From NCBI RefSeq assembly GCF_050920415.1, contig NZ_CP169309.1: 64,000 nt of DNA; one strand, 5' to 3'. The DNA is from Escherichia coli (GTDB taxonomy: Bacteria > Pseudomonadota > Gammaproteobacteria > Enterobacterales > Enterobacteriaceae). Every line of letters starts with the position of its first letter. The first letter of the stretch is position 1. Made by a program: the position numbers and the translations under genes. The notes under the pieces are model-generated. The model did not search any database. It had not been told where the DNA came from and saw only the letters and a list, made by a program, of their open reading frames with translations. This document shows, piece by piece, positions 2,049 to 20,926 of this stretch.

Positions 2049-3320
2049 TTAAACTCGCAATAATGCGCTTCCAAGATAATCGCTCGCGTCCTTCACCCCC
2101 GGCAGCGCAAAAAAATAACCGCCGCCGATGGGTTTAACGTATTCCTCCAGCGCTTCACCATTGAGCCTTTTTTGTACTGTCAGGAAGCCCTTTTCCAGAT
2201 CGTGTTGGTAGCAGACAAACAGCAACCCCATATCCAGTTGCCCGGAGTTGGTAACACCCAACGAATAACTGTAGCCACGACGCAGCATCAGACTAGACTC
2301 GCTCTCCGTCGTGCGGGGATTCGCCAGCCGGATATGGCTGTCCAGCGCGATCACCTTCCCTTCCGGATCACTGGCGTAATCGGGAACATCATGCTCATGC
2401 TGCATTCCCAGCGGCGCACCGGTTTGCTTATCGCGACCAAAAATTGTCTGCTGTTCTTTCAGCGGCGTTCTGTCCCAAAATTCCACTCGAAACTGAATCA
2501 AACGCACCGCCTGGTAGCTGCCGCCGATAGCCCACGCAGGCTCCAGCTGATCTGCCGTCACCCACACTACTTTTTGCATCACTTTCGCATTTTGGCTGTC
2601 AGGATTAGCAGTGCCGTCTTTGAAGCCCAACAAATTAATCGGCGTCTCTTTGCCTTTACTGCGCGCCGCGTGATCGGAAATAAACCCTTCCCGCTTCCAG
2701 CGCACGCTGAGCAAATCCGGCGTGTGTTTGATGATATCGCGCAGCGCATGGATCACCGTGTCCTGGGTGTTGGCGCAAATCTGTAGCAACACATCACCAT
2801 GACATAACGCCGCATCAAGCGAGTCGTTAGGGAAACGTGTCATCTTCTGCAACTTTTTCGGCATCTGCTGCGCAAGGCCAAAACGCTCATCAAACAATGA
2901 GTAGCCCACCGATAACGTGATGGTGAGATTATCGGGCGCAATGTAGCCGCCAAGAATGCCGGAATCGCGTGGCGGCAGGCGTGGATTTGGCGTTTCTGGT
3001 GCTGCTCCGCCCTGAGTCAGAAAAGCAAAACGCTGAGTCAACAAGCGAAACAATCGCTCAAGATCAGCTTTATCGCTGGCAAGCACATCAAACGCCACCA
3101 GCATCATTGCCGCCTGCTGCGGCGTCAGAATACCCGCCTGATGTTCGCCATAAAACGGCTGCGCTTCACTGCGCGCATCCGGTGAAAGCGTCCCCGGCGC
3201 ACTTTGCGTTTTTTGAGCATGCGCTACCGGACAACTTCCTGCCAGTGCCAGCGCGCCAATCCCTTTCAGTAAACGTCGGCGTGACGGTTCATTCACGCCG
3301 TTTTCATCTTCATACTGCAT
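2049..3320 (-). CDS. efeB: EfeB, Tat-secreted heme (DyP-type) peroxidase of the EfeUOB iron uptake system
   Basis: 423-aa ORF; twin-arginine signal ([16 protein letters not shown]); matches recalled EfeB/YcdB. Confidence 0.93.
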
Positions 3321-3325
3321 TACGC

Positions 3326-4453
3326 TTAATCCAGTCCCAGCACACCACGAAGTTGCGCCAGATCTTCCGCCAGCGCAGTAATCGGCCCTTTCAGCGCATT
3401 ACGGTCGGCATCGGTCAGCTTGTCGTAGGTTTCAAAACCGTCTTTAGTACGATATTTCGCCAGAATGGTATCGACCTTTTTGAAGTTAGCATCGACTTTT
3501 GCCAGCAGTTCCGGGTTGGCTTTTTGTAGTTGTGGACGCAGCAGATCGACAATTTTCTGCGAGCCTTCAACGTTAGCCTGGAAGTCCCACAGATCGGTGT
3601 GGCTGTAGCGATCTTCTTCACCGCTGATTTTGCTGGCTGCTACTTCCTCAATCAGTCCGGCTGCGCCGCCGACCACTTTTGAAGGTGGGAAAGCCAGTTC
3701 ACTGATGCGTTTTTGCAAATCGACCACATCGGTATAAAGCTGGTCAGCGTACTGATCCATCCCTTTGGTGGTGTTATCGCCAAACAATGCTTTTTCCAGA
3801 CGGTGGAAACCGGTGAATTTCGGATCGGCGGCTTTTTGCTCGTAATCATCTTCACGGGCGTCAATGCTGCCATCCAGATCGGAGAAAAGTTCAGCAATCG
3901 GTTCAATGCGCTCATAGTGCTGGCGCGTCGGCGCATACAGTGCTTTCGCTTTTTCGATATCGCCTGCTTTAATAGCGTCGGTAAAGGCTTTGGTGTCGGT
4001 CACCAGTTGCGTGGTTTCCGCCATGACATACGCTTTATATGCAGTAATTGCACCACCAAGACTTAACAGCGCATCACTTTGCGCCGCATCCGCCGTTGCC
4101 TCACCTTTGACGATCAACTTCCCTTTCGGGTTAGTCAGCAGACCGCAGGTCATATCGTATTCGCCAGGCTGTAAATTCGCCGTCATTTTCTGGCTAAAAC
4201 CAGGGGCGATATTTTCCCGCTCTTCCACCACCATCACGCCTTTGAGGATCTCCCACTCCAGCGCCTTCTGGCTGTGGTTCTGAATAATGAACTGTGTTTT
4301 CCCGGCGTTAACCGTAATGGTCATCGGTTCGCACTGTTTATCTGTCACAGTGACTTTGACCTGCGGAATATCAGCGGCGTTAGCCATAAAAGCAGAAGAG
4401 AACAGCGCAGCCACGCTCAACTGCAATGCGTTACGGCGGAAGTTAATGGTCAT
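3326..4453 (-). CDS. efeO: EfeO, periplasmic iron-binding component
   Basis: 375-aa ORF with signal peptide, 5 bp downstream of efeB start region; matches recalled EfeO/YcdO. Confidence 0.93.
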
Positions 4454-4510: not shown

Positions 4511-5341
4511 TTACGCGGAGCGAGACGCTGTCGCCCCTGCGCGCGGCGGCAGAGCAAATGCCACCAGCGCCGGGATGAGATAAATAAACCAGACGGCGAC
4601 TTCGCTGACGCTCGGCGCTTCCTGATAACCAAAGATACCTTCCATCAGCGTACCGAACAGCGAGTGAGTTGAGAGCACCGCGCTCATATCGAAGGCGATT
4701 TCCTGAAAGTGGTTCCACAGCCCGGCTTCATGAAACGCGCGAATAGCACCAGCAGCCAGCCCTGCGGCGACGAAGAGAATAAACAGGCTGGTCCATTTAA
4801 AAAACGCGCCAAGATTGAGGCGAATACCGCCCCAGTAGAGCAGGAAGCCGAGCACCACGGCTGTAGCAAGACCGAGCATTGCACCCAGCGGAGGCCAGAT
4901 ACCGACATCTTGTTGAAACGCCGCCAGCAGGAAAAAGACCGACTCCAGTCCTTCCCTTGCAACGGCAAAAAAGACCATCATCACCAGCGCCCAGCCATGA
5001 TGATTCCCACGCTGCAATGCGCTATCGACTGCCTGTTCCAGTTGCACTTTGACGTTGCGCGACACTTTACGCATCCAGAAAACCATCCAGGTGAGGATCA
5101 CCACGGCAATCACCGCCACGATACCTTCGAACAATTCCTGCTCTTTTTGCGGAAATTCGCCGGTAGTTTCATTAATGAATATACCCAGCCCCAGGCACAA
5201 CGCAGCGGCTAGCAACACGCCAATCCACATGACACCAATCCATCGACCTCGCTGGGTACGCTTAAGATAGCTGGCAATCAGGCTGACAATCAGCGCGGCT
5301 TCAAGTCCTTCGCGCAACATAATGAGAAACGGAACAAACAT
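4511..5341 (-). CDS. efeU: EfeU, ferrous iron permease (FTR1 family), apparently intact
   Basis: continuous 276-codon frame from MFVPFLIMLREGLEAAL; REGLE motifs present; no frameshift visible (K-12 carries a frameshifted copy). Confidence 0.88.
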   Translation of the reverse strand: MFVPFLIMLREGLEAALIVSLIASYLKRTQRGRWIGVMWIGVLLAAALCLGLGIFINETTGEFPQKEQELFEGIVAVIAVVILTWMVFWMRKVSRNVKVQLEQAVDSALQRGNHHGWALVMMVFFAVAREGLESVFFLLAAFQQDVGIWPPLGAMLGLATAVVLGFLLYWGGIRLNLGAFFKWTSLFILFVAAGLAAGAIRAFHEAGLWNHFQEIAFDMSAVLSTHSLFGTLMEGIFGYQEAPSVSEVAVWFIYLIPALVAFALPPRAGATASRSA

Positions 5342-5394
5342 GCCACCCACCCTTAAACGTTTTTCTGAGTCAATCTATGCAAAGAAAAGTAAAT

Positions 5395-5460
5395 CGCAGT
5401 GATAGCGATTATCATTACGGTGAAGAAAAACACAAGCGGAATGTAGTGATAATGATGAGG
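5395..5460 (-). promoter_or_regulatory. putative Fur boxes in efeU promoter region
   Basis: gatagcgattatcattac and gtgataatgatgagg resemble the GATAATGATAATCATTATC Fur consensus; efeUOB is known to be Fur-regulated. Confidence 0.4.
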
Positions 5461-5490
5461 AAATGTAAATTTTTTTTGAGAGAAAATGCA

Positions 5491-5513
5491 GAGGGCAATC
5501 ACTGATTGCCCTC
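5491..5513 (-). terminator. hairpin downstream of putP
   Basis: gagggcaat-cactg-attgccctc stem-loop followed by a U-rich stretch on the minus-strand transcript. Confidence 0.5.
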
Positions 5514-5560
5514 TGCCTGCTTCTGATTATGACGTGGGATTTTCGGTAAAACGCCTTCCC

Positions 5561-10400: not shown

Positions 10401-11454
10401 CCATATTCAGACCATGCGTAGCAAAGGCCGTCCGGTGTTCCAGGCGGTGCGGGAAAACAGTGAAGATGCCCGCGAATGGCAAAGTGGCACCTTTGTCGCC
10501 CCGACGCTGATCGAACTGGATGATTTTGCCGAATTGCAAAAAGAGGTCTTTGGTCCGGTGCTGCATGTGGTGCGTTACAACCGTAACCAGTTGCCGGAAC
10601 TGATCGAACAGATTAACGCTTCCGGTTATGGTCTGACGCTTGGCGTCCATACGCGCATTGATGAAACCATTGCCCAGGTCACTGGCTCGGCCCATGTCGG
10701 TAATCTGTATGTTAACCGTAATATGGTGGGCGCAGTGGTTGGGGTGCAACCATTCGGCGGCGAAGGGTTGTCCGGCACCGGGCCGAAAGCAGGCGGCCCG
10801 CTCTATCTCTACCGTCTGCTGGCGAATCGCCCGGAAAGTGCGCTGGCGGTGACACTGGCGCGTCAGGATGCAGAGTATCCGGTCGATGCACAGTTGAAAG
10901 CCTCATTGACTCAGCCGCTAAATGCACTACGGGAATGGGCGGCAAACCGTCCAGAATTGCAGGCGTTATGTACGCAATATGGCGAGCTGGCGCAGGCAGG
11001 AACACAACGATTGCTGCCAGGGCCGACGGGTGAACGCAACACCTGGACGCTGCTGCCGCGTGAGCGCGTATTGTGTATCGCGGATGATGAACAGGATGCG
11101 CTGACTCAGCTCGCCGCCGTGCTGGCGGTGGGCAGCCAGGTACTGTGGCCGGATGACACGCTGCATCGTCAGTTAGTGAAGGCATTGCCATCGGCAGTCA
11201 GCGAACGTATTCAACTGGCGAAAGCGGAAAATATAACCGCTCAACCCTTTGATGCGGTGATCTTCCACGGTGATTCGGATCAGCTTCGCGCATTGTGTGA
11301 AGCCGTTGCCGCGCGGGATGGTGCAATTGTTTCAGTGCAGGGTTTTGCCCGTGGCGAAAGCAATATCCTGCTGGAACGGTTGTATATCGAGCGTTCGCTG
11401 AGCGTGAATACCGCTGCCGCTGGCGGTAACGCCAGTTTAATGACGATCGGTTAA
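7492..11454 (+). CDS. putA: PutA, bifunctional proline dehydrogenase / P5C dehydrogenase and transcriptional repressor
   Basis: 1320-aa frame from MGTTTMGVKLDD (ORF-track maximum starts upstream at 7426); matches recalled PutA. Confidence 0.95.
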   Translation: MGTTTMGVKLDDATRERIKSAATRIDRTPHWLIKQAIFSYLEQLENSDTLPELPALLSGAANESDEVPNPAEEPHQPFLDFAEQILPQSVSRAAITAAYRRPETEAVSMLLEQARLPQPVAEQAHKLAYQLADKLRNQKNASGRAGMVQGLLQEFSLSSQEGVALMCLAEALLRIPDKATRDALIRDKISNGNWQSHIGRSPSLFVNAATWGLLFTGKLVSTHNEASLSRSLNRIIGKSGEPLIRKGVDMAMRLMGEQFVTGETIAEALANARKLEEKGFRYSYDMLGEAALTAADAQAYMVSYQQAIHAIGKASNGRGIYEGPGISIKLSALHPRYSRAQYDRVMEELYPRLKSLTLLARQYDIGINIDAEEADRLEISLDLLEKLCFEPELAGWNGIGFVIQAYQKRCPLVIDYLIDLATRSRRRLMIRLVKGAYWDSEIKRAQMDGLEGYPVYTRKVYTDVSYLACAKKLLAVPNLIYPQFATHNAHTLAAIYQLAGQNYYPGQYEFQCLHGMGEPLYEQVTGKVADGKLNRPCRIYAPVGTHETLLAYLVRRLLENGANTSFVNRIADTSLPLDELVADPVTAVEKLAQQEGQTGLPHPKIPLPRDLYGHGRDNSAGLDLANEHRLASLSSALLNSALQKWQALPMLEQPVAAGEMSPVINPAEPKDIVGYVREATPREVEQALESAVNNAPIWFATPPAERAAILHRAAVLMESQMQQLIGILVREAGKTFSNAIAEVREAVDFLHYYAGQVRDDFANETHRPLGPVVCISPWNFPLAIFTGQIAAALAAGNSVLAKPAEQTPLIAAQGIAILLEAGVPPGVVQLLPGQGETVGAQLTGDDRVRGVMFTGSTEVATLLQRNIASRLDAQGRPIPLIAETGGMNAMIVDSSALTEQVVVDVLASAFDSAGQRCSALRVLCLQDEIADHTLKMLRGAMAECRMGNPGRLTTDIGPVIDGEAKTNIERHIQTMRSKGRPVFQAVRENSEDAREWQSGTFVAPTLIELDDFAELQKEVFGPVLHVVRYNRNQLPELIEQINASGYGLTLGVHTRIDETIAQVTGSAHVGNLYVNRNMVGAVVGVQPFGGEGLSGTGPKAGGPLYLYRLLANRPESALAVTLARQDAEYPVDAQLKASLTQPLNALREWAANRPELQALCTQYGELAQAGTQRLLPGPTGERNTWTLLPRERVLCIADDEQDALTQLAAVLAVGSQVLWPDDTLHRQLVKALPSAVSERIQLAKAENITAQPFDAVIFHGDSDQLRALCEAVAARDGAIVSVQGFARGESNILLERLYIERSLSVNTAAAGGNASLMTIG

Positions 11455-19545: not shown

Positions 19546-19888
19546 TCGATTATTCATTGACCAACGTCTCATGCCCTGTTATTACTGTGAGATATTCAAT
19601 CACGTTATCAAATAAAAAAATCGATATCATTGCGGTAAGCTTGTTATTGATTATAAATATGGGTAATAAGCGATATCCAGCATGAATTTGATTGTACAGA
19701 GTATTTCCTATATAGCCATTGGTTAAATCTTGAAGATAAGATACCTCCGGCTGAAAAATCCATCCCGGCAATGAAGGATGTGATATTTTCGTAATTCTCT
19801 TGCAGAATAAACAACCCTGGATACGCTCTGAATACAAGGAAATTTTCCAATAAATTATTTATTCATCAATACTCCCCGGCGAGGATCA

Positions 19889-20407
19889 TCAAAATATCTC
19901 ATTATCTTTTAAAACTGCCCAGCCCGTTATAACGGACGTTATCTGGCGCACGCTGAAGTGGGCATGATACTCACTTTCATTAAAATGCTCGACATGATTT
20001 GCTAATCGCTTAGCTAGATAATTGACGTTCAGTCTGTGCCAAATTTTTAGCGAAAAATAGCAAATTTCAAGCCGGGAATTTATCAAAGCATCCTCATTTA
20101 CTTCACCATGAACAATAAAGTCACGCATAAACTGCAGGTGTTTAATTAATAAAATCCATTCACTTTCAGTAAGATAGTTTTTCCCACGCAGATTATAATA
20201 CAGAGATTTGATTAATGGGATCTTCTGCTTATGGCGCTTTGACCGCGCTGAGCACAATATTTGTTCTATCAGGCCAAGCGTCCCTTTCTGACGCAACCAG
20301 CACCGGAGTTCAGACTGCGCGCTAATGCCGCGAGCCACCGACAAATGTATTTGGGTAAGCAATGCGTATAAACCTAATAAAAACGCGTCGTGATAATACC
20401 GCTTCAT
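19889..20407 (-). CDS. hypothetical protein (172 aa), second gene of the AT-rich insert between yccJ and agp
   Basis: ATG at 20407 with good RBS (aaggtggg, 5-6 nt spacing); lies 12 bp downstream of the preceding ORF stop; visibly AT-rich; no homolog recognised; C-terminal RLANHVEH resembles an R-x(4-6)-H motif. Confidence 0.6.
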   Translation of the reverse strand: MKRYYHDAFLLGLYALLTQIHLSVARGISAQSELRCWLRQKGTLGLIEQILCSARSKRHKQKIPLIKSLYYNLRGKNYLTESEWILLIKHLQFMRDFIVHGEVNEDALINSRLEICYFSLKIWHRLNVNYLAKRLANHVEHFNESEYHAHFSVRQITSVITGWAVLKDNEIF

Positions 20408-20419
20408 TACCCACCTTTG

Positions 20420-20788
20420 TTATCGTAATTTTTTAAACAAATAATCATATAAAATTTCGGCAATGAATTCTGCATGTTCACGTCGCACAATGACATTCAT
20501 AACGTAATATTGCGCAGCAATTTCATTGATAAAATGTTCAGGCAGTATGAATACGCGTGCATAAGCCGAGTATATTTCCAGTATTTCATTTGAGATGTTT
20601 TCAAGATCAACGCAATAATTTGTCACATCATAAAAAAGATTAGCGTATTTTTTATTAATTATGCTAAGGCATATAAATGGGGCATTTAATTTTTCACACA
20701 ATTGCCAGTGCGTTCTTTCATTTTCTCCCTTCCATGTATACTTCATTTTGTCAGCCATCCTTTGATTTACGCGTCTGAAGTTTACCAC
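20420..20788 (-). CDS. hypothetical protein (108-122 aa), first gene of the AT-rich insert
   Basis: maximal ORF begins at a GTG (20788); ATG candidates at 20758 and 20746 (MKYTWKGENERTHW, weak AGGA about 11 nt upstream); no homolog recognised. Confidence 0.5.
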   Translation of the reverse strand: MVNFRRVNQRMADKMKYTWKGENERTHWQLCEKLNAPFICLSIINKKYANLFYDVTNYCVDLENISNEILEIYSAYARVFILPEHFINEIAAQYYVMNVIVRREHAEFIAEILYDYLFKKLR

Positions 20789-20893
20789 TGTGTCTGGGGT
20801 AAACCATGCGTTCTATGGTAAAAATTATACGAGATGTGGCGCTGCGTAATATTCTGCTCCCTCAATATATTTCTGGTGAATATGTTCCAGGTT

Positions 20894-20926
20894 AATTGGG
20901 AAGATCTGCATGTGATCTTCCCAATT
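20894..20926. other. perfect 13-bp inverted repeat hairpin at the agp-proximal edge of the insert
   Basis: aattgggaagatc-tgcatgt-gatcttcccaatt; followed by a T-rich stretch on the plus strand only. Confidence 0.6.

Follow-up and report, generated by a model that had tools for sequence, protein, structure and literature searches.

EfeU is an inner-membrane channel and a homologue of the yeast protein Ftr1p, and the mutagenesis literature indicates that the glutamates of its REXXE motifs are needed for iron translocation. The two systems differ in their partner proteins. Whereas yeast Ftr1p works with the multicopper oxidase Fet3p, the bacterial permease is partnered by EfeO and EfeB, which act on Fe2+ in the periplasm, with EfeB possibly also acting on haem.

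Within Escherichia coli, the efe operon of O157:H7 is functional and growth under iron restriction is restored by it, whereas the system of MG1655 is non-functional owing to a frameshift in efeU (PMC2808357, PMC7549933). The title of Cao et al. (2007) describes EfeUOB of O157:H7 as a low-pH Fe2+ transporter, and EfeU (YcdN) of the strain Nissle 1917 was shown to be active by Grosse et al. (2006), as that study is cited. For transport activity, the roles of the partner proteins, and regulation, we draw on this background (Grosse et al. 2006; Cao et al. 2007). What the present analysis establishes is that the gene and the operon are intact, that the protein belongs to the family, carries its motifs, and matches the O157:H7 protein exactly, and that the promoter-proximal DNA is conserved.

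The window analysed is a 64-kb stretch of E. coli DNA that corresponds to positions 3098702-3162701 of NZ_CP169399.1 (E. coli MFDS1022581, a food isolate from Korea), with only 6 mismatches, at window positions 10446, 11393, 22260, 22951, 55023, and 60758. We are highly confident that positions 4511-5341 on the minus strand are a wild-type, intact efeU, which heads an intact efeU-efeO-efeB operon in an E. coli strain other than K-12. The locus is the standard efeUOB in its common form, intact and already characterised, and its biology is known. The coding sequence and its two signature motifs, with coordinates counted from the ATG at 5341, are as follows.

4511-5341, minus strand: efeU coding sequence, inner-membrane FTR1-family iron permease (ORF, Pfam, NCBIfam, RefSeq WP_000497942.1, identity to the Sakai protein)
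5300-5314, minus strand: first REGLE (REXXE) motif, residues 10-14, inside hydrophobic segment 1, residues 5-23 (motif search and hydropathy)
4943-4957, minus strand: second REGLE (REXXE) motif, residues 129-133, inside hydrophobic segment 4, residues 119-137 (motif search and hydropathy)

The first-pass annotation had described a single uninterrupted frame of 276 codons encoding an FTR1-type permease with REGLE motifs, without giving the strand, and both parts of this description hold. In the six-frame ORF list and in the raw sequence, the frame, on the minus strand, opens with an ATG at 5341 and closes with a TAA at 4511-4513, giving 831 nt, or 276 codons and a stop, and neither source revealed an internal stop codon or a frameshift between these positions. 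The RefSeq coding sequence WP_000497942.1 in the near-identical NZ_CP169399.1 has the same coordinates. An in-frame GTG at 5350, three codons upstream, would extend the ORF to 279 amino acids (4511-5350), but was rejected as the start since it falls within the purine-rich stretch AAGGGTGGGTGG ahead of the ATG, and since the ATG is used by RefSeq and by all compared strains.

Assignment to the FTR1 family is supported by three profiles. The Pfam FTR1 profile (PF03239) is matched at E=1.8e-89 and 300 bits, against a curated cutoff of 25.3, over residues 1-275 and thus full-length; the NCBIfam EfeU equivalog NF041756 scores 331 bits (cutoff 255), and TIGR00145 scores 352 bits (cutoff 304). A Pfam MFS_1 match of 27 bits fell below its cutoff of 33.4 and was dismissed as noise from the hydrophobic segments. 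Several ORFs of 60-167 amino acids overlap the gene, antisense to it or in another frame, and might suggest that the long frame is itself a chance or shadow ORF, or that a frameshift had been misread. We give this reading no credence. The FTR1 and EfeU equivalog matches exclude a chance ORF, with profile matches here reaching E values of ~1e-89 to 1e-105, the protein is 100% identical to the Swiss-Prot entry from O157:H7, and the RefSeq coding sequence has identical coordinates.

The full-length profile match and the two REXXE motifs are features that EfeU of the window has in common with yeast Ftr1p and the FTR1 family. By hydropathy alone (Kyte-Doolittle peaks over 19 residues), the protein has seven hydrophobic segments, at residues 5-23, 38-56, 70-88, 119-137, 152-170, 185-203, and 248-266; the segment at 119-137 peaks at 1.59, a value lowered by its two glutamates and an arginine. 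A sequence search of the PDB with EfeU returned no chain at E<=0.001; judged in this way, the family of FTR1 permeases would lack a solved structure.

The predicted protein was compared with functional alleles, a check proposed along with the initial description. EfeU of O157:H7 Sakai (ECs_1263, EFEU_ECO57) is identical at 276/276 residues, and the exact sequence falls in the UniRef cluster represented by Swiss-Prot EFEU_ECO57 and is found on at least 1000 contigs. At the nucleotide level, the two genes differ at 41 of 831 positions (95.1% identity). Every one of these differences is synonymous (dS 0.24, dN 0), indicating strong purifying selection. In the case of Nissle 1917 (NZ_CP022686.1), efeU is likewise an intact 831-nt gene, with 93.6% nucleotide identity to the window, and its product is identical at 273/276 residues; the three substitutions, M8I, A263V, and A276M, all fall outside the REGLE motifs. 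The 100% identity to the O157:H7 protein, taken together with the literature, leads us to infer that the EfeU of the window transports iron.

The K-12 allele provides the contrast. In MG1655 (NC_000913.3), efeU (b4490, formerly ycdN) is annotated as an 830-nt pseudogene, and the pairwise alignment of this orthologous locus with the window contains a single gap, at gene nucleotide 106, where K-12 reads GGATT-GTG and the window reads GGATTGGTG.

5235-5236, minus strand: GG pair at gene nucleotides 106-107, codon 36; one G is lost in K-12 and both are present in the window (pairwise and four-way alignments, direct reading)

The 1-bp deletion that defines the K-12-type pseudogene allele is thus absent from the window, in agreement with the initial statement that this efeU is unlike the frameshifted K-12 gene. 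Without the G, translation of the K-12 gene ends in ...RGRWIV*, at a stop that follows codon 36, past the first transmembrane segment only, with the remaining protein encoded in the +2 frame. Besides the deletion, the MG1655 and window genes differ at 38 further positions, all of them synonymous, and restoring the missing G to K-12 yields a protein identical to that of the window, meaning that the K-12 pseudogene has undergone no further decay.

A by-product of the analysis is an estimate of how frequent the K-12 allele is. The efeU gene is present in 5,417 of 5,426 complete E. coli genomes, and the exact deletion allele, counted by exact matches to a 61-nt K-12 probe with the deletion at its centre, was found in 368 of the 5,426. 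Laboratory K-12 derivatives account for four of the five exact-probe matches that were sampled (ER1709, AML003, J53, and K-12). For the other matching genomes, each sampled full-length match (H61-H114) spans 62 nt, which shows that the extra base is present. An intact efeU is therefore the species norm at this site, and its intactness says little about the strain. The further claim that the window is not from K-12 is correct, but far stronger support for it than the efeU frame comes from a nucleotide divergence of ~5-6% across the region: identity to MG1655 is 94.2-94.4% for putP and the efeUOB segment, and 97% at the phoH end.

Comparison with some older reference records is less straightforward. 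In CFT073 NC_004431.1 and Nissle NZ_CP007799.1, efeU is annotated as frameshifted, owing to an extra C after gene nucleotide 80 that is found in these two records alone among the 5,426 genomes.

L006, 14529-15360: efeU with extra C, CFT073 NC_004431.1 (alignment)
L008, 1451-2282: efeU with extra C, Nissle NZ_CP007799.1 (alignment)

The gene is 831 nt long in three other CFT073 assemblies, in four records named Nissle, and in several engineered Nissle derivatives. Given an intact gene in other assemblies explicitly named CFT073 or Nissle 1917, the extra C is probably a sequence error of the older records and not biology. FDAARGOS_497 was considered as a resequenced CFT073 and dropped, the accessions of its putP and EfeU proteins being different from those of CFT073. 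Both affected records are widely used, and a naive comparison of efeU with either would be misled by a spurious +1 insertion that is absent from newer assemblies of the same strains.

Upstream of efeU, the spacer that separates it from putP (window 5342-5560) is 219 bp long. The ~125 bp nearest the ATG are near-identical to K-12, whereas upstream of about -125 the sequence differs from K-12 and matches Nissle. The Nissle 1917 spacer is a collinear 219 bp with 15 mismatches. The candidate regulatory elements of this region are as follows.

5401-5419, minus strand: candidate Fur box CGTAATGATAATCGCTATC, matching GATAATGATAATCATTATC at 15/19 positions, identical in K-12 and Nissle (consensus scan)
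5408-5435, minus strand: candidate sigma-70 promoter, TTGTGT-16 nt-GATAAT, with the -10 element inside the Fur box (read from the sequence by eye)
5469-5440: alternative promoter candidate, TTTACA-18-TACATT (promoter scan)
5379-5393, plus strand: CpxR-box-like GCAAAGAAAAGTAAA, 9/10 to GTAAA-N5-GTAAA, between the promoter and the start codon (pattern scan)
5488-5516, minus strand: 13-bp GC-rich hairpin with a T-rich tail, the likely putP terminator, present in Nissle too (terminator scan)

The hairpin, the candidate Fur box, and the CpxR-like box are common to the window and Nissle 1917, and the CpxR-like box, a candidate site by consensus match, is identical in K-12 as well. Both regulators have been connected with the gene: efeU is among the genes bearing a Fur box (PMC4145685) and is listed as negatively regulated by CpxR (PMC9600279). 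The putP terminator would likely insulate efeU from upstream transcription. In other strains, the spacer is more extended, with 542 bp and a TRIP1b repeat in K-12, and 2.67 kb that includes the 1344-nt gene ECs_1262 in Sakai. Set against the 219 bp of the window and Nissle, these lengths mark the DNA just upstream of the efeU promoter as a variable insertion hotspot.

Downstream of efeU, the two partner genes lie on the same strand, with gaps of 57 nt between efeU and efeO and 5 nt between efeO and efeB (ORF list), followed by a cluster of inverted repeats.

3326-4453, minus strand: efeO, 375-amino-acid periplasmic cupredoxin and imelysin (M75) protein, intact (Pfam Cupredoxin_1 and Peptidase_M75; NCBIfam EfeO, 774 bits)
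2049-3320, minus strand: efeB, 423-amino-acid Tat-exported DyP-type haem peroxidase/deferrochelatase, intact (Pfam Dyp_perox_N/C; NCBIfam TIGR01412, 609 bits)
1813-1969, no strand assigned: REP/BIME-type inverted repeats downstream of efeB, between efeB and phoH (inverted-repeat search)

The succession of efeU, efeO (cupredoxin and M75 domains), and efeB (Tat signal and DyP peroxidase), all intact, is that of the tripartite EfeUOB operon, and the scores of EfeO and EfeB lie far above the NCBIfam equivalog cutoffs (for EfeB, 609 bits against 428). The Sakai locus (ECs_1263-1265) has the same gene order, the same gene lengths (831/1128/1272 nt), and the same flanking genes, putP and phoH. The REP/BIME repeats are the probable 3' end of the operon transcript. 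An Rfam match to naRNA4 (CssrE) lies within the repeat cluster at 1856-1933 on the minus strand (72 bits), and a match to Ysr251, a Yersinia antisense sRNA, lies at 519-712 on the plus strand (194 bits), antisense to the 3' part of phoH.

Divergence is unevenly distributed along the operon. Relative to Sakai, dS is 0.24 for efeU, 0.13 for efeO, and 0.31 for efeB, with 0, 1 (V29I), and 14 amino acid changes, respectively. EfeB departs from its Sakai, K-12, and Nissle counterparts at 12-14 residues (14 in the case of Sakai or K-12), with dN about 0.016 and dN/dS about 0.05, and its exact allele was found on 86 contigs, whereas the exact EfeU and EfeO sequences were each found on at least 1000. 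It is conceivable, if doubtful, that the efe operon of cryptic clade I is a recombination mosaic, and that the divergent EfeB has changed in its peroxidase or deferrochelatase properties whereas EfeU is kept absolutely invariant; this would mean that selection acts differently on the periplasmic and the membrane components.

The limited distribution of this EfeB allele and its 14 differences from Sakai and K-12, together with the intergenic DNA beyond about -125 that differs from K-12, might also be taken to mean that efeU is intact and yet EfeUOB is non-functional or silent in the source strain, with the divergent EfeB or the distal promoter differences as the cause. EfeB nevertheless scores well above its cutoff, and at a dN/dS of about 0.05 it retains the twin-arginine motif SRRRLLK and D235, H329, and R347, which we take to serve in catalysis and as haem ligands in O157 EfeB. 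The intergenic architecture, for its part, is that of Nissle 1917, whose EfeU is active (Grosse et al. 2006, as cited). In addition, the complete lack of non-synonymous change in EfeU over a dS of 0.24 argues for selection on the operon in this lineage. Loss of function in the face of such conservation is highly improbable.

With efeO and efeB intact, and with the promoter-proximal region and its candidate Fur box conserved, it is reasonable to conclude that EfeUOB ferrous-iron uptake is likely functional in the source strain, as was originally proposed. In the model that we favour, EfeU would be an FTR1-family permease of the inner membrane with seven segments, and the glutamate-bearing REGLE motifs of segments 1 and 4, both hydrophobic, would be the presumed sites of iron binding and translocation. 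Together with periplasmic EfeO and the Tat-exported haem peroxidase EfeB, it would import iron given as Fe2+, chiefly when the pH is low and iron is limiting. Fur-Fe2+, acting at the promoter, would repress transcription, and CpxR would do so when the pH is higher, such that the operon would be induced by low iron and by acid.

A functional operon could also serve a different main role, namely the extraction of iron from haem by the deferrochelatase activity of EfeB rather than the uptake of free Fe2+. The RefSeq name for EfeB, 'deferrochelatase/peroxidase', fits such a role, and a 2009 study by Letoffe and colleagues reportedly described haem-iron extraction by EfeB/YfeX. The published functional tests, as far as their titles tell, describe a low-pH Fe2+ transporter, and a predominantly haem-directed role seems unlikely. 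Sequence does not distinguish between the two roles, a question that concerns the known system as a whole and not the window. For the source strain, uptake of ferrous iron remains the preferred reading. Like most E. coli, the strain has the genes for the low-pH EfeUOB route that is missing from K-12, a point of use when a cryptic clade I isolate is annotated or its metabolic or virulence functions are inventoried.

The placement of the strain follows from genome comparison. After NZ_CP169399.1, the next closest genomes are ~98% identical to the window and form a small group including 2013C-4282 and EC42405, whereas most E. coli, including K-12 derivatives, are ~95.5% identical over 20 kb. Both named strains are listed as cryptic clade I (PMC10100065), and by sequence similarity the window groups with them.

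Two other segments of the window were noted in passing. At 19555-20900, the alignment of most E. coli genomes ends (the last aligned position being 19554), and two hypothetical genes on the minus strand, at 19889-20407 and 20420-20746, which lie between yccJ and agp, are missing from most genomes. At 55292-57869, a degraded mobile-element remnant adjoins a tRNA-Ser gene (55292-55379); it contains an Ail/Lom fragment (55641-55841), tRNA-Gly and tRNA-Arg genes (56787-56936), and an integrase fragment (57699-57869), as well as an Rfam match to STnc100 at 56284-56476.
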